64,000 nt of DNA from Candidatus Binatia bacterium (GCA_965231775.1 OZ246888.1:3741590-3805589), one strand, 5' to 3'. Positions 19,064 to 62,615 are shown, counted from the first letter of the stretch. Made by a program: numbers and translations. Notes: generated by a model not told the origin, from the letters alone.

Positions 19064-19219
19064 ATACGCCCTCCTTTGAGATGCGTGCGGTAGTGTACAC
19101 GGGTTCGTCTTTCATAAACTATTCCGGTCCTGGCGTCACGAGACCAGAGATACTGAAAAGTTCCCCTTGCTTCCCCACCCTCGGAAGAGGTACACACAGG
19201 CTGAAAAGGAGGGAGTGTT

Positions 19220-19798
19220 ATGGCGCATGTCAGTCCGGTCCCATTTGAGCATATCGACCCTGAGGTTCAGCAGATCATGCAGACCTATGACAAGGAGTAT
19301 GGCGGCTCGGCGTTCTTGCAGGCGTTCGCCCATGCTCCCGAGGTCTTCAAGTCTTTCGCCAACTATTACTTCCCGCTCATCTTCGAGACCCGCGGCAGCA
19401 TCGATATGCAGCTGACCGAGTTGGTGCGCCTGAAGGTTGCGGAGCGCAACGACTGCGCCCTGTGAATCAACGGGCGCGTTGCTTTGGCAAAGCAACAAGG
19501 TCTGACGGAAGAACAAATCGGGGAGCTGTCAATCTATGCTGACAGCACGATTCTCACCCCGCGCGAAAGGGCTGCCGTCCGCTATGCCGACGTGTTGGCC
19601 GGAGATCATACCCAGGCATCACCAGAGCTGTTTGACGAACTGCGCCAGCACTTTACCGAGCCGGAGATCATAGACCTCGGGTTTCGGATTACGGCTTTTG
19701 TCGGCTATGGGCGTTTTATTCGCGCGCTCGGCTTAGAGAGAGGCGGCGTGTGTCCGCTGTCGGAGGCGCATACCAACGGGGCTGAGCAGGTCGCCTGA
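19220..19798 (+). CDS. AhpD-like / carboxymuconolactone decarboxylase-family protein with in-frame UGA (candidate selenoprotein)
   Basis: Two same-frame ORFs (19220-19465 and 19484-19798) are separated only by TGA 19463-19465. The joined protein aligns to the CMD/AhpD core, and the TGA falls on the second Cys of the C-x-x-C motif (ERNDCAL-TGA-INGRVALAKQQG). A stem-loop follows 12 nt downstream. Confidence 0.6.
19478..19496 (+). promoter_or_regulatory. SECIS-like stem-loop downstream of in-frame UGA
   Basis: GTTGCTTTGGCAAAGCAAC has a 7-9 bp perfect stem with a G-containing apical loop (UGGCA). The loop lies about 20-25 nt 3' of the UGA. Confidence 0.5.
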
Positions 19799-26681: not shown

Positions 26682-27563
26682 TTAGAGATGTGTTTCAAAC
26701 CATTCTTTGATGAGCGGCAGACTCTGGTCAAGCCCAGGACCAGAGAGAATATCGCTGTGGCCAAGGCCGGGCAGAATCACAATCTTCTTGGGCTCTCCAG
26801 CCTTTTCATACATGGACTGTGACTCTTCCATGGATACGCGCTCATCTGCGTCGCCGTGCAGCCATAGCATCGCCCGGGGTGATATCTGATGCACGACGGA
26901 CTCGGGCCGATACGCAATCAAGGCTTCACCCGAGGTCAGCGTGATCTCTCGGCTCCACTGCGGATGCTGGTCGAGAATCTGTGCAAACAGGGCGGTCGTA
27001 CTCTCCGGCTCGGGCACAATCTCACTGGCTTGAACATACTGCTCCTGCCCGGTCAGGACGCGCTCGCGTCAGTTGTCTGCCAGGCGTCGGAGTAATGCCT
27101 GCCATTCCCAGAAATGACAGGCGTCACGCGTCCAACGCCCACAGTCGCCGATGCCACAGACGCTCACCGTGGCTTTGACCCGCTCTTCTACCCCGGCAGC
27201 ATAACTGACGTTGGCCCCACCGAGACTGACGCCGAGCAGTCCAATCCGGTCCGGGGCGACCTCGGGCTGTTGCTGCATGAACGTGACCGCATTTTGGATA
27301 TCTTCGATCTGCCGCATAGGGATGATCTGGCGACGGGGTTCTCCGCCACTCGCACCCAGGAAGCGGTAGTCAAACGTCAGGACGACATACCCGGCCTGAG
27401 CCACGCACCGGGCAATATCGGGCAACAGGACTTCTTTCACCGCGGTAAAGCCGTGGCATATGACAATGCCGGGTCTTGGCCTGTCGGAAGGGCTGTCCTC
27501 AGGTAGAAAAAGGACGCCTGCCATGGGGACACTTTCACTGTAGAATTGAACTGACTTTTCCAT
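26682..27563 (-). pseudogene. alpha/beta hydrolase (dienelactone-hydrolase-like) interrupted by an in-frame TGA
   Basis: Two ORFs in the same frame, 27069-27563 and 26682-27017. The upstream part carries GVSLGG (Ser nucleophile). The downstream part carries LHGDAD (Asp) and GLGHSD (His). They are separated by TGA at 27069-27071 with no frameshift. Confidence 0.45.
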
Positions 27564-27573
27564 ACTCCTCCCT

Positions 27574-28164
27574 TTAGCGTTTGGGCATCTTGGGGACAAA
27601 ACGCGGCACCCGCTGTTGATACTGCCGGTATGCCTGCCCAAAGCGTTCGACCAGCTCGCGCTCTTCCATCAGCGTGATGCCATACAGCACCAGGCAGGCG
27701 AGAGGACACAGGAGATACACGGCCAGATAGTTCGTACAAAGCGCAAGCGCGAAGACACTCAGGATCACGACGACATAACGAGGATGCCGCAACCGCGCAT
27801 AGATGCCCTGGTCCAAGAGCGGCTGGCCGGGCGGCGTGGGCGACAGTTCGGGAATGCCGACCAGAGTGCGCAGGGTCAGATGTTTTCGACACTGCACCTC
27901 AACCACCAGGGCAGCGACAAAGCACAGCACGGCCGGCCAGCCCAACCAGCCGGGCGGCCCGAATTCGACGGCCAGGAGCGTCTGCCGCAGCACAAAGACG
28001 CCAGCGCCGATGGCAATGAGCATCATCCCCAACACGGAGTACGAGATCACAAGCCCAAGTTGTCGCCAGCTATGGACCAGACCGTGAGCAAACGGCCAGA
28101 ACAAGATACCTGGGATAAAGGCCACCAGCGTGAGGAGAGCCAGGTTATAGCGGACGGTATCCAT
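27574..28164 (-). CDS. isoprenylcysteine carboxyl methyltransferase (ICMT)-family membrane methyltransferase
   Basis: It is multi-TM. The C-terminal 'RHPRY...LEERELVERFG' matches the ICMT/PEMT family. Confidence 0.55.
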   Translation of the reverse strand: MDTVRYNLALLTLVAFIPGILFWPFAHGLVHSWRQLGLVISYSVLGMMLIAIGAGVFVLRQTLLAVEFGPPGWLGWPAVLCFVAALVVEVQCRKHLTLRTLVGIPELSPTPPGQPLLDQGIYARLRHPRYVVVILSVFALALCTNYLAVYLLCPLACLVLYGITLMEERELVERFGQAYRQYQQRVPRFVPKMPKR

Positions 28165-32547: not shown

Positions 32548-34269
32548 TCAAGCATTCCAGGATTTTATACGCTCGACGATTTCCCTCATCTGCTCTCCCC
32601 AATCAAATCGCCCTGCCATGAGGTCCTTTGTCATGTGTGGAGCGCTCTGGATAGCCAAGCGCATCTTATCAAAGTGCTTTCGACTCAGGCGCACTTCGAT
32701 ATACGACGATGTTTCGTTTCGGGGAAAGAAGGACTCATACTGCTCAGGGTCGGGCAGCGACGGCAAGTCTAAGGCTTTCTCAAGAACAGAGCCGGGAAGG
32801 TAATTCTCAATTTCCCTAGCGGTGGTTATCCAAATATGCGCACCGGGTATGTTCTCGACTTCCATGCGAATCCTCAACACCCTGACCTTTAGAGGAGAAT
32901 CCTCGGAAGCGCGGTCTCCGTCACACATAACAACGATGTTCGGATTCACCCGGAACAAATTCGCAAGCTCGGTTTCTTTCTCGGAAGGCTGAAATTCGAT
33001 CTGCGCCAAAAGCGCTCCGCCATAGAAGGCGCATTGATAGTCACGCCCCTCTCGAAGAGCGCCTTCGCTATAGAGTTGAATCCAGCGATTAAGATACGCA
33101 CGGTCCGAAGGCCCCTCCACCCAAACGATGCCGTTTGCCTGAAGCAAATCCGACGGCTTTGCACCTAACTCGGAGACGACTCCAAGGCGATCAAAATGCG
33201 CGGAAACCGTTGTTGTGCGAGCAGTCTCGCCATCATGAGTAACATGGATGATCTGCGCATCCTCCGACATTCCGAAAAGGTCGAGGGCCGTGCTTGAATG
33301 AGTCGTCAGAAAGATCGAGGCTTTTTCGTTAAGAGCGTAATCTTCAAGATACTGAAAAAGTCGTCGTAAGAGTGCCGGGTGAAGATTGTTTTCAAGTTCC
33401 TCAAACGCGAATACGAATTGGGACTTCTCTTTGTTCTCAACTTTGGGAATAACCAATAGGTTCAGCAGCACCAAAAGAACAGTCTTCAGACCACTTCCCG
33501 ATTTGCTGAGTGGAATTAGCCCCTTCTTCTCCTCGCCAAGGTAGACCTCCCAATGGTTTCTTGGTCCAGGTGCTTTTTCATCGTCATGAGATTTTATCTG
33601 GATCCCCGAAAACTTCCCGTCGTCTCTAAAGATCGAATTCAGTACCCCCAGAAGATCATGCTGGATAACCTCACTCGGGTACTGAGGGTTCACACTAGTT
33701 ATGAAACGCCTCATTATATTGGAGGCCCCACTCCCGTCGTGGCCGAGTGCTAGTTCGAGTTCTGGTAGCTCGGTCTTAATGTCGCGATCAGCAAGAAGTC
33801 TGCGGAATGACTTCCCGCTGAGATAGTGAGTTGGGTGACTCACCACCCTTTCAATTGCTGAAATCCTCGCGTTGGTCGAGCGCTCACCAAAAGATGACTC
33901 GAATGTGAAGCCGTCGGGAAAACCCACGTTGTTCGCTGTATACCCATTTGCTTCAATTTCCCACGTTATCTTAGTATCGACAAAATGTTTTCCGTGATCA
34001 TGCCAGTGATTCCTTTCAAGTTCACTGCCTCTTACATGGGCGCCAAACTGCCTTCCCAGAGACACCTCGTCTAACACGCCACGGCATCGATATTGCCAAC
34101 CACGATTGCCGAGTTCGCCTTGGCTTAATGCTTCAACCAAATCCAGTAGATGTGATTTTCCAGAGTTATTCCGTCCGATGATGACGTTGATCGGCTTAAC
34201 AGTATCGAAACCAGCCCACTCTTTTTGAAAACAGAGATGTCCCTTGAAGTATACGGAGTCAGCTTTCAC
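32548..34269 (-). CDS. OLD-family ATP-dependent endonuclease (ABC ATPase + C-terminal TOPRIM)
   Basis: 573 aa. Walker A 'GRNNSGKS', signature-like 'LSKSGSGLKTV', Walker B/D-loop 'FVFAFEELENNLHP', and H-loop 'LTTHS'. The C-terminal TOPRIM has 'IVWVEGPSDRAYL' (Glu) and 'VVMCDGDRA' (DxD). Local GC is clearly below the flanks. Confidence 0.7.
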   Translation of the reverse strand: MKADSVYFKGHLCFQKEWAGFDTVKPINVIIGRNNSGKSHLLDLVEALSQGELGNRGWQYRCRGVLDEVSLGRQFGAHVRGSELERNHWHDHGKHFVDTKITWEIEANGYTANNVGFPDGFTFESSFGERSTNARISAIERVVSHPTHYLSGKSFRRLLADRDIKTELPELELALGHDGSGASNIMRRFITSVNPQYPSEVIQHDLLGVLNSIFRDDGKFSGIQIKSHDDEKAPGPRNHWEVYLGEEKKGLIPLSKSGSGLKTVLLVLLNLLVIPKVENKEKSQFVFAFEELENNLHPALLRRLFQYLEDYALNEKASIFLTTHSSTALDLFGMSEDAQIIHVTHDGETARTTTVSAHFDRLGVVSELGAKPSDLLQANGIVWVEGPSDRAYLNRWIQLYSEGALREGRDYQCAFYGGALLAQIEFQPSEKETELANLFRVNPNIVVMCDGDRASEDSPLKVRVLRIRMEVENIPGAHIWITTAREIENYLPGSVLEKALDLPSLPDPEQYESFFPRNETSSYIEVRLSRKHFDKMRLAIQSAPHMTKDLMAGRFDWGEQMREIVERIKSWNA

Positions 34270-34333
34270 TCTGAGTGTCCTCCCGCACGTCCAGCTTACA
34301 ATTCAACGTGTTGGTGATGAACAGCACCGGTTA

Positions 34334-35500
34334 TCACGGCACTTCGGTTCCTTCATTGATGATAGAAAGATACCTGTCGTAAACGAACACTCGGCCGCGG
34401 CGTTTACCGGTAATCTCACGCGCAACTCCATTCTGGACGAGTAGTTCCATTGCCTTAGAAGCCGTTGCAAAGGAAAGCTGCGTACTGCTACACGCTGCGG
34501 ACAATGAGAGAATCGGCCGTGCCTTGAGTGCATCGTGTATGCGGAGCGCCGACCCGGCCCGTCGGCCTTCGGTTGTCTCGATTCGGCTGCGGTCGTCCTG
34601 AAACATGTGGGCGAGACGTTGGGCAGTCGAGACCGCACTGGTGGCAGTCAGGCGCACGCCTTCGAGGAAGAAGGCAAGCCAAGACTCCCAGTCCCCTGTC
34701 TGGCGCACCTGCTTAAGCAGCTCATAGTAGGTGGCGCGGTTCTGCTTGAAATACAGACTCAGATACAAAAGTGGCTGGTGGAGTACATCAGCGTGGCATA
34801 ACAGAAGGGTTACGAGCAATCGTCCTACACGCCCGTTTCCGTCAAGGAAAGGGTGAATGGTCTCGAACTGCACATGCGCAAGACCGGCACGAAACAGCAC
34901 AGGGAGTCCGTCTTCCTCGGCGTGCAGGAAACGCTCAAACCTCGCCAGGCAGTCAGGTACGGCTGTATGCGGAGGCGGGACAAAGACGGCATTACCGGGG
35001 CGGGTACCGCCGATCCAGTTCTGTGAACGGCGGAACTCGCCAGGGGTTTTATCGTCCCCCCGCCCACGTGATAGCAGCACGCCGTGAATCTCACGGAGTA
35101 AGCGATTTGACAGCGGGAAGTTCTCCCGCAGGCGGCGCAATCCGTGGTTGAGCGCCGCTACGTAGTTCGAGACTTCGACCACATCATCGAACGGAACTCC
35201 AGGCGCTTCGTCCAACTCGAAAAGCAAGAGGTCGGACAGCGATGACTGTGTTCCCTCTATCTGAGAGGAGAGTACCGCTTCCTTCCGCACATACGCGTAG
35301 AGAAAAAGTGCCTCATCCGGCAGAAGGGTCGAGACACTATCTAACCGGCCCAAGGCAAGCACCGCTGATTCAAGGGCCTGCTGCAAAGGGCCGTCCAGAA
35401 CCAGCGCTGGGTTTGGCGGGAGCGGTGCCGGAATGAAGGCTCTGACCTGCTCACCTCCGACGCTCGTCACCTCATATATGCCAATCTCTCCGCGTCGCAT
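34334..35500 (-). CDS. Fic-family protein (Fic_N + Fic core HPFLDGNGRVGR + C-terminal winged helix), class II with N-terminal inhibitory SxxxEG motif
   Basis: It has the perfect Fic motif HPFxDGNGRxxR. The N-terminal 'SSQIEGTQ' matches the [ST]xxxE[GN] autoinhibition motif. The C-terminal 'ITGKRRGRVFVYDRYL' is wHTH-like. It lies 64 bp upstream of, and co-directional with, the OLD gene. Confidence 0.8.
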   Translation of the reverse strand: MRRGEIGIYEVTSVGGEQVRAFIPAPLPPNPALVLDGPLQQALESAVLALGRLDSVSTLLPDEALFLYAYVRKEAVLSSQIEGTQSSLSDLLLFELDEAPGVPFDDVVEVSNYVAALNHGLRRLRENFPLSNRLLREIHGVLLSRGRGDDKTPGEFRRSQNWIGGTRPGNAVFVPPPHTAVPDCLARFERFLHAEEDGLPVLFRAGLAHVQFETIHPFLDGNGRVGRLLVTLLLCHADVLHQPLLYLSLYFKQNRATYYELLKQVRQTGDWESWLAFFLEGVRLTATSAVSTAQRLAHMFQDDRSRIETTEGRRAGSALRIHDALKARPILSLSAACSSTQLSFATASKAMELLVQNGVAREITGKRRGRVFVYDRYLSIINEGTEVP

Positions 35501-47573: not shown

Positions 47574-48113
47574 TTACTCGGCATAGACCTCGGGCCGTAA
47601 GACGGCAATGTACGGCAGGTTGCGATAACGGCCGGCAAAGTCGAGCCCATAACCCACCACAAACACGTCTTCGATGACAAACGCGCGAAAGTCGGCTTCA
47701 TACGCCACTGTCCGCCGGGCGGGCTTGTCGAGCAGCACACAGGTTTTAACTTCACGGGCTCCTTGTTTTAAAAGTGCTGTGCGGAGAAACTCCAGCGTCC
47801 GGCCCGTATCGAGGATGTCATTGACCAGGAGAATGCGCTGTTCTCGGATTTCCTGGTCGGTCGGGAAATAATCCAGGCTCAGCCTGCCACCCGTTGTCCC
47901 GTCTCCATAGCTCGATACCGCAGCAAAGCTCAGCCGGAGCGGAAAGGGAAGCCGGCGGATGATATCAGCCGTAAAGAGGCAGCCGCCCTTAAGCACCGAC
48001 ACCACAGTACAGGGCGCGTCCCGATAATAGGCCGCGACTTCCTGGGCAACGCGGCTCAGGCCGACTCGGATATCCGTCTCGGTGAACAGGATACGTTCAA
48101 TATCCTTTGCCAC
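47574..48113 (-). CDS. hpt: hypoxanthine phosphoribosyltransferase
   Basis: 'ILLVNDILDTGRTL' is the PRPP-binding motif, and 'VVGYGLDFAGRYRNLPYI' the C-terminal Hpt motif. I chose a GTG start (VAKDIERILF) with GGAG upstream. Confidence 0.75.
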   Translation of the reverse strand: MAKDIERILFTETDIRVGLSRVAQEVAAYYRDAPCTVVSVLKGGCLFTADIIRRLPFPLRLSFAAVSSYGDGTTGGRLSLDYFPTDQEIREQRILLVNDILDTGRTLEFLRTALLKQGAREVKTCVLLDKPARRTVAYEADFRAFVIEDVFVVGYGLDFAGRYRNLPYIAVLRPEVYAE

Positions 48114-48210
48114 GTCGGTCGCTCCTGGGCCACGCTTTGTCTCCAGCCGGTAAATGCCTCGCTGCTCAGGAGCTTTTACCGACCTACAAGGCTCCACATT
48201 ATGGTGAATT

Positions 48211-49064
48211 GCTAGGCTCAGGACTCATAACCAGAAGATAACAGTAGCGGCAAGACAGATGGCGCTGAAGAACGTATGTGCACAGCGGTCATAGCGGGTG
48301 GCGATGCGCCGCCAGTCCTTGAGCCGGCCGAACATGCGTTCAATGCGATTGCGTTGCTTGTAGAGCTCAGCATCATAGGAGATCGGCTGTTTGCGGTTGG
48401 TCCGACCTGGGATACAGGGCGTGATCGCCCGCTGGGCCAGGGCCGTGCGGAACCGGTCGCTGTCATACCCCTTATCGGCGATCAGGACCTCCGCGTCCGG
48501 TAGGGCGGGCAGCACCGTGGCAGCCCCCCGGTAATCGCTGACCTGCCCGGCCGTCAGGAGCAGAATCAAGGGTTTGCCGTCGCGGTTACAGACGGCATGG
48601 AGTTTCGAGTTGAGCCCGCCCCGGGTGCGCCCAATGCAGCGCGAAAGCGCCCCTTTTTGAGCAGACTGGCCGCAGTCCGGTGCGCCTTCAAGTGCGTCGC
48701 GTCGATCATCACGGTGGCCGTCGCGCCTCCGTCACTAGCCAAGGCCGCGAAGAGCCGATTGAAGATACCAGCTTGGCTCCAGCGCACGAAGCGATTATAG
48801 AGCGTCTTGTGTGGCCCGTAGCAGGCGGGGGCATCGCGCCACCTCAAGCCGTTCCGAATGACGTGGATGATCCCGGAGATGACGCGCCGGTCATCGACCC
48901 GCGGTACCCCGCGCACCTTCGTGGGCAACAACGGCTGGAGCCGGGCGAATTGGGCTTCAGACAGCCAGAAATGATGGTCAGCCATGACAATCCCCCTCAC
49001 ATAGGGGCCAATTGAAGCATACGACCGCCTCCGGTAAAAGCCCGTTTATAGGTCCTGAGCCTAG
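48211..49064 (-). mobile_element. IS5-family insertion sequence (IS427/IS1031-like group), ~0.85 kb, terminal inverted repeats CTAGGCTCAGGAC
   Basis: The 13+ bp perfect IRs sit at about 48212-48224 and 49052-49064. The element encodes a two-ORF DDE transposase and lies between hpt and a GFA gene. Its terminal TAG supplies the stop codon of the GFA gene. Confidence 0.75.
48225..49000 (-). CDS. IS5-family DDE transposase (orfA/orfB, joined by probable -1 frameshift at CAAAAAGG)
   Basis: orfA (MADHHFWLSEAQFARL, DUF4096-like) and orfB (ILLLTAGQVSDYRG...DKGYDSD...NRIERMFGRLKDWRRIATRYD) overlap. An A6G-type slippery run lies near 48650. Confidence 0.75.
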
Positions 49065-60206: not shown

Positions 60207-62615
60207 ATGATGAGGGAACACACTATGGCAACCAGTCTGGCGGGTACGGGCAAGATGGTCGGCGCGGAGGTCAAGCGGGTTGAAGACCCGCGCATGCTCC
60301 TGGGCAAGAGTCAGTATGTGGACGATATCCACCTGCCCGATACTCTGGCGGTCGCCTTTGTCCGCAGCCCGTATGCCCACGCGCGGATTCTCGGCATTGA
60401 TACGAGTGCGGCTACGGCCCACCCCGGCGTCCAGGCGGTCATCTCCGGTGAGGATGTCGCAGATGCCATACCGCCGCTCCGGGTCGAGTTTGACCCAACA
60501 AATGCGCCCACTCACAAGTCCTGCGACTGGCCGGTCCTGGCTCGGGGAAAAGTCCGCTTTGTGGGTGAGATGGTGGTCGCCGTTATTGCCACCGATCGCT
60601 ATGTCGCCGAGGATGCCGCCGCGCTGGTCGAGGTCGAGTACGACCCGCTCGACACTCTCTGGGACATGGAACAGGCGCTGGAGCCGGACGCCCCGCTGGC
60701 ACATGAAGACTGGGGCGACAACGTCATGCAGACCCTGGAAGCCAGCATGGGCGAGGTCGATGCCGCGTTTCGGGCGGCTGACTGTGTGGTGGCTGAACGT
60801 TTTACAACAGGGCGTCACATGTCCCTGCCCATGGAGACGCGTGGCTGTCTGGCTACTTTTGATTCAGTGACGGACTCGCTGACGATCTGGTCCTCGACCC
60901 AAGTGCCGCATGTCCTCCGTTCAAACCTGGCGCTCTTATTAGACTTTCCCGAACACCATATCCGGGCCATCGCCCCGGACGTAGGCGGCGGTTTTGGACC
61001 CAAGGCGCATGTGTTTCCCGAGGAAGTCCTGACCGCCTTCTTCGCCCGTCGGTTTGGCTGCCCGATCAAGTGGATTGAAGATCGGCGCGAAAATCTGGCC
61101 GCCGCCATGCACGCCAAGCATCAAATTGTCGAGGCCGAACTCGCCCTGAAAAACGACGGGACCATCCTCGGTGTGAAAGCGCGCTTTCTGAACGACGTTG
61201 GTGCGTATTCCTGCTTTCCGTTTAGTTCTGCCCTGGAAGCCGGGCACGCAGCATCAGGGCTGCCCGGTCCGTATAAGCTCCCGGCCTATCGCTACGAGGC
61301 CGTCTCCATTGTCACCAATAAAGTCACCCTGGGTGCCTACCGCGGCGTGGGCCTGCCGATTGCCATCCTGGTCATGGAACGCTTGCTGAATCTTGGCGCG
61401 CAGCGGCTGGGGCTTGATCCGGCAGAACTCCGCCTGCGGAATATGATCCGCCAGGAAGATCATCCCTACACCACGATTGCCGGCGCAAAGATCGAAAGCG
61501 GGAGCCATCAGGAGTCCTTACAAAAGGCACTCGATATGCTGGGGTATGACAACTTCCGAGCGGAGCAGGAACAAGGCCGAAAAGCCGGCCGCTATCTTGG
61601 CGTGGGCCTGGGCTGTTACATAGAAGGTACGGCTCCTGGCTCTTCGTTTTTCAACCTCATGGGGATACAGGTGGGCGGCTATGAGTCGGCCACCGTCCGG
61701 ATGGATGTCAATGGGAAAGTCACCGTTTTGACCGGCTCTTCTTCACATGGTCAGGGTCATCAAACCACCCTCGCCCAAGTGGCAGCCGACGAATTAGGCG
61801 TGGCCGTGGCCGATGTGAAAATCGTGCAAAGCGACACCGCTCTTGTTCCCTATGGCTGGGGAACCTGGGGGAGCCGAACGGCGGTGACCAGTGGTGGGGC
61901 TATTATCAGAGCAGCGACGAAAATCCGGGAGAAGATTCTGCGGACGGCCTCACGGCTCAGCGAAATTCCTCCAGACGACCTGGAATTGGCGGGCGGCATG
62001 GTGGTCCGCAAACAGGACGGGACCACGCTCATGCCGATTAAGACGATCGCCTACCACGCCATCGTCGCACCCAGCAATTTAGCCCCAGAAGACGAACCAG
62101 GGCTGGAGGCAACCACGAATTATGAACCCCCGCCGGCAACGCATTCCAATGCGACTCACTTGGCAACGGTTGAGGTGGATGTTGAAACCGGGCAGATCAG
62201 CCTGCTGCGCTATATCGTTGTTGAGGACTGCGGCCGGATTATTAACCCCATCATTGTCGATGGACAAATTCAGGGCGGGGTCGCCCAGGGGATCGGCACG
62301 GCCATGTATGAACATGCCATCTACGACGAGAATGGACAGTTCTTAACCGGCACACTCATGGATTATCTCGTCCCTACAGCGCTAGACGTTCCGCGCGTCG
62401 AGATCGGTCACTTTGAAACGCCTTCACCCAACAGCCAGGGAGGAATCAAAGGGATAGGCGAAGGCGGGGCCATTGCGCCGCCGGCCGCGATTGCGAACGC
62501 GGTCGCCGATGCGCTCTCCCCGCTCGGGGTCCAGGTGAACGACATCCCGCTCACGCCGGAGCGGGTGTTGGCCGGTATCGAACGGGCGAGAAACGCGGCC
62601 GGGACACCCAACTAG
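60207..62615 (+). CDS. xanthine dehydrogenase/aldehyde oxidase-family molybdopterin-binding large subunit
   Basis: 802 aa. The N-terminus 'VKRVEDPRMLLGKSQYVDDI' and the Mo-centre motifs (GGGFG, CYIEGT, 'SSHGQGHQT') are present. No FAD or 2Fe-2S subunit genes are adjacent. Confidence 0.75.
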   Translation: MMREHTMATSLAGTGKMVGAEVKRVEDPRMLLGKSQYVDDIHLPDTLAVAFVRSPYAHARILGIDTSAATAHPGVQAVISGEDVADAIPPLRVEFDPTNAPTHKSCDWPVLARGKVRFVGEMVVAVIATDRYVAEDAAALVEVEYDPLDTLWDMEQALEPDAPLAHEDWGDNVMQTLEASMGEVDAAFRAADCVVAERFTTGRHMSLPMETRGCLATFDSVTDSLTIWSSTQVPHVLRSNLALLLDFPEHHIRAIAPDVGGGFGPKAHVFPEEVLTAFFARRFGCPIKWIEDRRENLAAAMHAKHQIVEAELALKNDGTILGVKARFLNDVGAYSCFPFSSALEAGHAASGLPGPYKLPAYRYEAVSIVTNKVTLGAYRGVGLPIAILVMERLLNLGAQRLGLDPAELRLRNMIRQEDHPYTTIAGAKIESGSHQESLQKALDMLGYDNFRAEQEQGRKAGRYLGVGLGCYIEGTAPGSSFFNLMGIQVGGYESATVRMDVNGKVTVLTGSSSHGQGHQTTLAQVAADELGVAVADVKIVQSDTALVPYGWGTWGSRTAVTSGGAIIRAATKIREKILRTASRLSEIPPDDLELAGGMVVRKQDGTTLMPIKTIAYHAIVAPSNLAPEDEPGLEATTNYEPPPATHSNATHLATVEVDVETGQISLLRYIVVEDCGRIINPIIVDGQIQGGVAQGIGTAMYEHAIYDENGQFLTGTLMDYLVPTALDVPRVEIGHFETPSPNSQGGIKGIGEGGAIAPPAAIANAVADALSPLGVQVNDIPLTPERVLAGIERARNAAGTPN

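Follow-up and report, generated by a model that had tools for sequence, protein, structure and literature searches.

An AhpD-like gene in a Candidatus Binatia bacterium is interrupted by a single in-frame TGA, which raises the question of whether this codon terminates translation or directs the insertion of selenocysteine (Sec). The gene lies in a 64,000-nucleotide stretch of DNA (GCA_965231775.1 OZ246888.1:3741590-3805589), referred to here as the window; all positions are counted from its first letter. The original prediction, made from the sequence alone, held that two ORFs share one frame and are separated only by TGA 19463-19465. Inspection of the sequence and its translation confirms this arrangement: a single reading frame on the plus strand extends from 19220 to 19798 and comprises 192 codons plus a stop, with one internal in-frame TGA at 19463-19465. 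The residues that surround the internal TGA are VAERNDCAL on the N-terminal side and INGRVALAKQQG on the C-terminal side. The features of the gene are as follows.

19208..19212 (+), Shine-Dalgarno sequence GGAGG, 7 nt 5' of the ATG, read from the sequence
19220..19798 (+), coding sequence of a 192-residue AhpD-like/CMD-fold predicted selenoprotein, with ATG at 19220, UGA as codon 82 and the stop TGA at 19796-98
19418..19420 (+), codon for Glu67, an invariant column located 12 residues before the first Cys, corresponding to Glu36 in PA0269 and to Glu118 in Mycobacterium tuberculosis AhpD (MtbAhpD)
19454..19456 (+), TGC codon for Cys79, which opens the C-x-x-U redox motif and is invariant in the homologue alignment
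19463..19465 (+), in-frame UGA, putative Sec codon (residue 82), which aligns to Cys in Cys-type homologues
19475..19477 (+), codon for Arg86, invariant, at the +4 position occupied by the proton-relay His in AhpD and PA0269

The assignment of a single coding sequence is based on the translation, on a carboxymuconolactone decarboxylase (CMD) domain that crosses the UGA and on collinear full-length Cys homologues (P0001-P0007). Consistent with this view, tblastn matches in 80 loci span residues 1-192 of the joined protein. The GGAGG-ATG layout at the start of the gene is also present in the orthologues L001, L002 and L003. The flanking genes are both on the opposite strand, and thus the CMD gene stands alone; simple scans for a sigma-70-like promoter and an intrinsic terminator gave no match at the gene.

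The joined 192-residue protein belongs to the CMD/AhpD fold, as originally proposed. In profile searches, for which Cys was placed at the position of the stop, the Pfam CMD family (PF02627) matched residues 40-124, across the UGA, with an E-value of 3.8e-14 and a score of 52.9 bits against a gathering threshold of 23. Full-length homologues of ~190 aa are 57-60% identical to the joined protein in the protein search (56-59% in the alignment), align collinearly with it and contain C-R-L-C at the motif. In the alignment the TGA occupies column C82, the second Cys of C-x-x-C, which is nearly invariant in the full-length homologues, in agreement with the position first assigned to it. The nearest solved structure identified by the family profile is Pseudomonas aeruginosa PA0269 (2O4D/2IJC; E 5e-18). 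Glu67, Cys79, codon 82 and Arg86 align to Glu36, Cys48, Cys51 and His55, respectively, of the PA0269 proton relay, the assignment of Glu67 being derived from the profile alignment and the roles of the residues from PMC3141380. The Glu-x11-Cys-x-x-Cys active-site helix pair of the AhpD-like family (PMC3141380) is represented by E67, C79 and U82. By contrast, the proton-relay His at +4 after the second Cys, described as invariant in AhpD-like structures (PMC3141380), is not found in the window protein. Its place is taken by Arg86, which lies opposite the His of C-A-Y-C-V-N-M-H, the PA0269 motif, and is invariant throughout the clade, in Sec and Cys forms alike. The AlphaFold model of the Cys homologue P0001, which is 59% identical to the window protein, is all-helical (pLDDT 75.5) and superposes on 2PRR, 6K40, 2OYO, 3C1L and Bmp8 (6OHJ) with TM scores of 0.72-0.76, those for 2PRR and 6K40 being about 0.75. 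The model of this homologue thus displays an all-helical AhpD-like fold.

Public gene calls describe the locus differently. Every public record examined divides the gene into two 'hypothetical' ORFs, of 81 aa and ~105-114 aa, neither of which has a Pfam match on record. The protein search returned, in addition to the full-length homologues, dozens of fragments of ~105-116 aa that start directly after the TGA column, and other fragments that stop just before it, at ...C-N-L or ...C-Q-L. Read literally, such calls correspond to two small genes, one encoding an 81-aa protein ending at the TGA and the other a 104-aa protein starting from TTG 19484, and the automatic annotation in ENA, NCBI and JGI has exactly that split. 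Two separate genes are, however, extremely improbable, as the TGA lies within both the CMD domain recognized by Pfam and the pair of active-site helices, while the Cys-type homologues are single chains of 190 aa. Furthermore, the codon that follows the TGA is ATC, ATT, ATA, CTG, CAG, AAG, AGG or CGC in many orthologues, showing that there is no conserved restart codon, and TTG 19484 is not preceded by a Shine-Dalgarno sequence.

The behaviour of codon 82 across species bears on whether the TGA is a lesion in a formerly intact gene. A tblastn scan in which each GTDB species was represented by one genome identified 80 loci from different species genomes, mainly Candidatus Binatia, the others being from "delta proteobacteria", Methylomirabilota and Gammaproteobacteria, with protein identities down to 56%. 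The closest loci are 98% identical to the window gene, and L001 is syntenic with the window. Codon 82 is TGA in 77 of the 80 species-level loci and TGC in three. The DNA of three orthologues showed the same TGA, each with a related hairpin downstream. No other stop occurs in any of 84 distinct TGA-containing DNA sequences over 450 nt (150 codons). Synonymous sites in the orthologues vary freely (~1.1-1.4 bits per codon) while the protein is conserved, indicating that both halves of the gene are under purifying selection.

A single base change would suffice to convert a Cys codon, TGC or TGT, into TGA, and the gene could in principle be a pseudogene in which the hairpin is coincidental. The split made by public gene callers is in keeping with such a history, and the same window holds a real nonsense-interrupted gene, a hydrolase with a CGA-to-TGA change at 27069-71. 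In that gene the orthologue has CGA (Arg), as expected of a real nonsense mutation, which contrasts with the pattern at the CMD gene, where the TGA is shared by 77 of 80 loci, no further stop has accumulated in 84 distinct sequences, and the protein is conserved on either side of the codon despite divergence at synonymous sites. A mutation that inactivated the gene would not last across phyla under purifying selection, and the divergence of the loci excludes their being assembly copies of one sequence. On these comparisons the pseudogene reading is effectively refuted, and its probability is negligible. A single wrong base in what is really a Cys codon, whether from sequencing or from assembly, is scarcely credible either. 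Although metagenome assemblies do have single-base errors, and the neighbouring hydrolase TGA could be one, the TGA of the CMD gene recurs in assemblies produced independently by many projects and with many technologies, some of them multi-megabase records whose titles denote chromosome assemblies. The original prediction had regarded pseudogene and sequencing error as the less likely readings, a judgement that the wider sampling upholds.

Several variations in copy number and motif were observed among the orthologues. A second tandem copy is present in two loci, and that copy also contains the TGA. These tandem paralogues, from two 'delta proteobacterium' genomes, are ~600 nt apart (L029, 3244 and 3834; L042, 3244 and 3880), have the TGA at the same column and possess their own covarying hairpin each (UCGCGCU-GGC-AGCGCGA and AUGCCUC-GGC-GAGGCAU). 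Two unlinked gene copies, both with TGA and encoding proteins that are ~62-64% identical, occur in several Candidatus Binatia chromosomes (L015/L026 in OY761159.2, L005/L034, L006/L038, L016/L046 and others); at least 12 of the sampled Candidatus Binatia assemblies carry two unlinked copies. In three Candidatus Binataceae orthologues (L003, 3140; L004, 485; L084, 3244) Cys79 is replaced by Ala, the motif being A-K-A-U or A-K-P-U, and the UGA and hairpin are kept. The sequences of these three orthologues suggest a one-selenol variant of the protein.

The decoding of UGA as Sec in bacteria depends on a stem-loop, the SECIS element, and the original prediction included a perfect stem starting 12 nt after the UGA with the distance and shape of such an element. 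The RNA features at this position are listed below.

19478..19496 (+), putative SECIS upper stem-loop: GUUGCUUU at 19478-85, loop GGC at 19486-88 and AAAGCAAC at 19489-96
19471..19504 (+), possible lower helix extending the SECIS, in which 19471-75 pair with 19500-04; tentative, present in the minimum-energy fold

The hairpin, GUUGCUUU-GGC-AAAGCAAC, consists of eight Watson-Crick pairs capped by a 3-nt loop. A spacer of 12 nt precedes the stem, and 20 nt separate the UGA from the loop. Published rules for bacterial SECIS elements specify a loop of 3-9 nt, a stem of 4-16 bp, a G in the first two loop positions, a location 16-37 nt from the UGA and a minimum free energy of no more than -7.5 kcal/mol (PMC13188914). 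The window hairpin conforms to all four rules, with its GGC loop, 8 bp, distance of 20 nt and energy of -13.3 kcal/mol in a 48-nt context; the bare 19-nt hairpin yields only -6.6 kcal/mol. A perfect hairpin of at least 8 bp in bacterial-SECIS geometry accompanies just 2 of the 1,957 TGA trinucleotides on the two strands of the window, and only the example at the CMD gene has long open frames on either side (86 and 110 codons). Folding energy alone is unremarkable: the 66-nt region has a z-score of -0.54, and 57 of 200 shuffles were at least as stable. As the shuffle z-score is uninformative, the geometry count and covariation were used instead. A search of the whole window against Rfam at gathering thresholds gave no match.

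Among 44 distinct Binatia/delta-type sequences 90.9% of the cells in the upper helix are paired, and two-sided changes are found in five of the eight pairs, while sliding the partners by 1-3 columns reduces pairing in this main group to 37-54%. Pair 21-29, which couples the third (synonymous) position of an Ala codon with the middle base of a Lys, Arg or Ala codon, is formed in all of them: 29 sequences have C-G, 11 have U-A and 4 have G-C. The covariation score was reached by 0 of 500 shuffles. For the lower helix (19471-75/19500-04), 67.7% of cells are paired across the orthologues and pair 12-39 is mostly unpaired, which makes this extension doubtful. The hairpin of ten gammaproteobacterial orthologues occupies another register, its loop being GGUC, AGGU or AGUU; here 93% of cells are paired and two-sided changes occur in three of nine pairs. 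Across both groups the structures as tested are 82-93% paired, compared with 30-54% for the slid controls.

The stem lies wholly within conserved codons, and the sequence GCN-UUG-GCA-AAG-CAA is partly self-complementary by nature, so the hairpin might be no more than a by-product of encoding the peptide A-L-A-K/R-Q-Q, devoid of RNA function. This explanation is highly unlikely in view of the compensatory changes, which tie a synonymous to a non-synonymous site with pairing never lost at pair 21-29, and of the restricted synonymous choice within the stem, where UUG encodes Leu89 in 66 of 71 cases and GCA encodes Ala90 in 76 of 83, CAA being the predominant codon for Gln92 and Gln93. In addition, the gammaproteobacterial orthologues encode a different peptide over the hairpin (A-R-L-A-V-A-R-Q-E) and still form one in another register, whereas the three Cys-type loci, which encode F-A-H-A-Q/E-K-R, lack a hairpin in the register of the window gene. 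On this comparative evidence the hairpin is a conserved RNA structure kept by compensatory changes.

A recoded UGA does not necessarily specify Sec. The codon could be reassigned to Trp or Gly, and SECIS-dependent insertion of Cys by a tRNA with a UCA anticodon is a mechanism described in the literature. A JGI metagenome protein, P0008, carries Trp at the Sec column (KNDCFLWLHARL), and no Sec machinery was seen in the window or the fetched loci. The Trp in P0008, however, looks like UGA translated as Trp by the annotation pipeline. TGA terminates 15 of the 49 genes in the window and is thus an ordinary stop, showing that the code is not reassigned; moreover, the corresponding residue in the homologue alignment is Cys and in no instance Trp or Gly, and the documented state in the AhpD-like fold is C-x-x-U. 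Recoding to a residue other than Sec is consequently very improbable.

With regard to the Sec machinery, tRNA scans of the window and 60 loci revealed no tRNA whatsoever, none of the 20 window ORFs of SelA, SelB or SelD size was identified by Pfam as selA, selB or selD, and tblastn with approximate Escherichia coli SelA, SelB and SelD queries returned no matches in the window or any of the fetched loci. Thus, tRNA-Sec, selA, selB and selD were not found in the 64-kb window or in 84 related loci (~0.5 Mb). It is very unlikely that the machinery is absent from the genome, because the module of UGA and hairpin has been kept across 77 species, and we infer that the source genome encodes it and that Sec is inserted at codon 82. 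A screen of the window for same-frame ORF pairs split by TGA and for SECIS-like hairpins identified no other selenoprotein gene. Collectively, the sequence data indicate that the CMD gene is very probably a real Sec-decoding AhpD-like gene, whose product is a 192-residue protein with a Cys79-Ala-Leu-Sec82 redox centre.

If decoding follows the pathway established for bacteria, the intragenic hairpin, whose GGC loop lies 20 nt after the UGA, would act as a bacterial SECIS. SelB carrying Sec-tRNA(Sec) would bind the hairpin and bring Sec to the ribosome, such that release factor 2 would not terminate translation at codon 82. Homology with AhpD and PA0269 points to a catalytic scheme in which Sec82, taking the place of the exposed Cys that attacks in those proteins, would react with an oxidised substrate or partner (possibly a peroxide, a sulfenate or a disulfide), and Cys79 would resolve the adduct by forming a selenenylsulfide. 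In the AhpD proton relay, the positions of the Glu and His would be taken by Glu67 and Arg86. Sec at the attacking position is usual in selenoenzymes, and the orthologues that lack the first Cys and contain Sec (A-K-A-U and A-K-P-U) fit the reading of Sec82 as the attacker. In this respect the original prediction, which described the second Cys of the motif as the resolving residue, is probably wrong. In MtbAhpD the second Cys, Cys133, is exposed and attacks AhpC via a disulfide, while Cys130 is its partly buried partner (PMC6626918); by this comparison Sec82 would replace the attacking residue rather than the resolving one. Gene context offered no conserved neighbourhood as a clue to function: the adjacent genes vary from lineage to lineage, and neither ahpC nor any other peroxiredoxin gene was found linked in the four contexts examined. 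The sole peroxidase-like neighbour in these is an OsmC gene ~6 kb away in L001.

AhpD-like proteins are, as originally stated, an established bacterial selenoprotein family. The Sargasso Sea survey of 2005 (PMC1088965) included C-x-x-U proteins of the AhpD-like (COG2128) and CMD-domain types among its selenoprotein families; in the GOS data of 2008 they were among the commonest selenoproteins, with 299 AhpD-like and 70 CMD-domain sequences (PMC2398784), and a 2026 review lists them under TIGR01926, PF02627, NF041047 and NF041238 (PMC13188914). The window protein resembles the AhpD-like selenoproteins of COG2128/TIGR01926 ('AhpD-like 1') in its size of ~190 aa, a CMD/AhpD core that follows an N-terminal extension, Sec in place of the second Cys of C-x-x-C, a SECIS with a G-containing loop just downstream and the existence of Cys homologues. 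It falls outside the TIGR01926 ('peroxidase-related enzyme') subfamily, however, scoring 50.7 bits against a curated cut-off of 81.8 (other clade members score 31-58 bits), and its lineage is mainly Candidatus Binatia. The balance of Sec and Cys forms also differs, the Sec form being the rule in the clade of the window gene (77 of 80) compared with 299 Sec and 902 Cys AhpD-like sequences in the GOS data (PMC2398784). The protein is likewise similar to the CMD selenoprotein 'AhpD-like 2' (PF02627), in that it passes the Pfam threshold and has the same C-x-x-U motif; the 'AhpD-like 2' label is defined by the Pfam domain alone, and the likeness is one of domain and motif. The best NCBIfam match is to NF053654 ('GroundWater_YciW, YciW-related (seleno)protein'), a model that allows Sec and aligns end to end with the window protein (residues 1-170 to profile positions 1-169 of 179). 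The score of 77.4 bits is nevertheless well below the cut-off of 310, six other clade members reaching 50-71 bits. The window gene thus belongs to a different orthologous group, and the NCBI pipeline would neither name nor repair it.

Comparison with characterized proteins places the window protein in a similar position. It shares with MtbAhpD and PA0269 the helix-turn-helix active site with Glu-x11-Cys-x-x-Cys, but differs from both in the invariant Arg in place of the +4 His, in the predicted Sec in place of Cys and in having no ahpC neighbour in the four contexts. Foldseek ranked Bmp8, a tetrabromopyrrole debrominase (6OHI/6OHJ) and thiol-dependent CMD-fold enzyme, first among the matches to the P0001 model (TM 0.73). 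With an identity of only ~20%, and no halogenation genes nearby, Bmp8 is a structural relative only. The hairpin, like the E. coli fdhF-type SECIS and the bSECISearch consensus, is a stem-loop in the coding sequence located 16-37 nt from the UGA, and agrees with them in its small apical loop, which starts with G followed by G or U, some gammaproteobacterial orthologues having a GGUC loop. It is distinguished from them by a loop of only 3 nt (GGC) and the lack of an evident bulged U, and SelB would be expected to bind it.

The window gene thus joins a known kind of selenoprotein, the AhpD/CMD C-x-x-U proteins, and possibly represents a new subfamily, as no clade member reaches the cut-offs of the NCBIfam (seleno)protein models and the signature His is absent. 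The broader proposal of a distinct, unmodelled subfamily of AhpD-fold selenoproteins, defined by near-obligatory Sec, Arg in place of His, A-x-x-U members, two gene copies and a shift in SECIS register, is tentative and somewhat doubtful. No literature on selenoproteins in Binatia was found in open-access text; the protein, if a genuine selenoprotein, would be among the first documented in this uncultured class. It would imply the use of Sec in Candidatus Binatia and several related uncultured lineages, and a Sec-dependent thiol/selenol oxidoreductase kept there under strong selection. The data also expose a systematic annotation gap, in that public gene calls split the gene: with neither ORF matched by Pfam and no NCBIfam model at its cut-off, automated pipelines keep missing it. 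It should be noted that no concept is changed by these findings, as both the AhpD-like C-x-x-U selenoproteins and the SECIS elements of bacteria are textbook knowledge in the field.

Other features of the window were recorded in the course of the analysis. The hydrolase gene mentioned above (26682-27641, minus strand) encodes an alpha/beta-hydrolase that is Peptidase_S15/DLH-like in L001. Its in-frame TGA (27069-27071) is located between the nucleophile and the Asp/His regions, and the L001 orthologue, which is 94% identical, has CGA (Arg) at this position. This TGA was attributed to a nonsense change from C to T, or to an error in the assembly, and recoding was rejected. An IS5-like transposase fragment that ends at a TGA (48225-48731, minus strand) shares its frame with the next gene (47574-48197, minus strand), which from its sequence looks like hypoxanthine phosphoribosyltransferase (hpt). 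The pair was rejected as a selenoprotein gene, the frame sharing being due to chance. An AAA_15/AAA_21 (AbiEii-like) ATPase gene adjoins a Fic/DOC gene at 32548-35500 (minus strand). The third-position GC of the ATPase gene is 0.53, compared with ~0.7 in most window genes, and the pair may therefore be a mobile or defence islet. Finally, the large subunit of a molybdenum hydroxylase of the xanthine dehydrogenase family is encoded at 60207-62615 (plus strand), beside genes for a luciferase-like monooxygenase and a Rieske oxygenase; some enzymes of the molybdenum hydroxylase family use a labile selenium cofactor.
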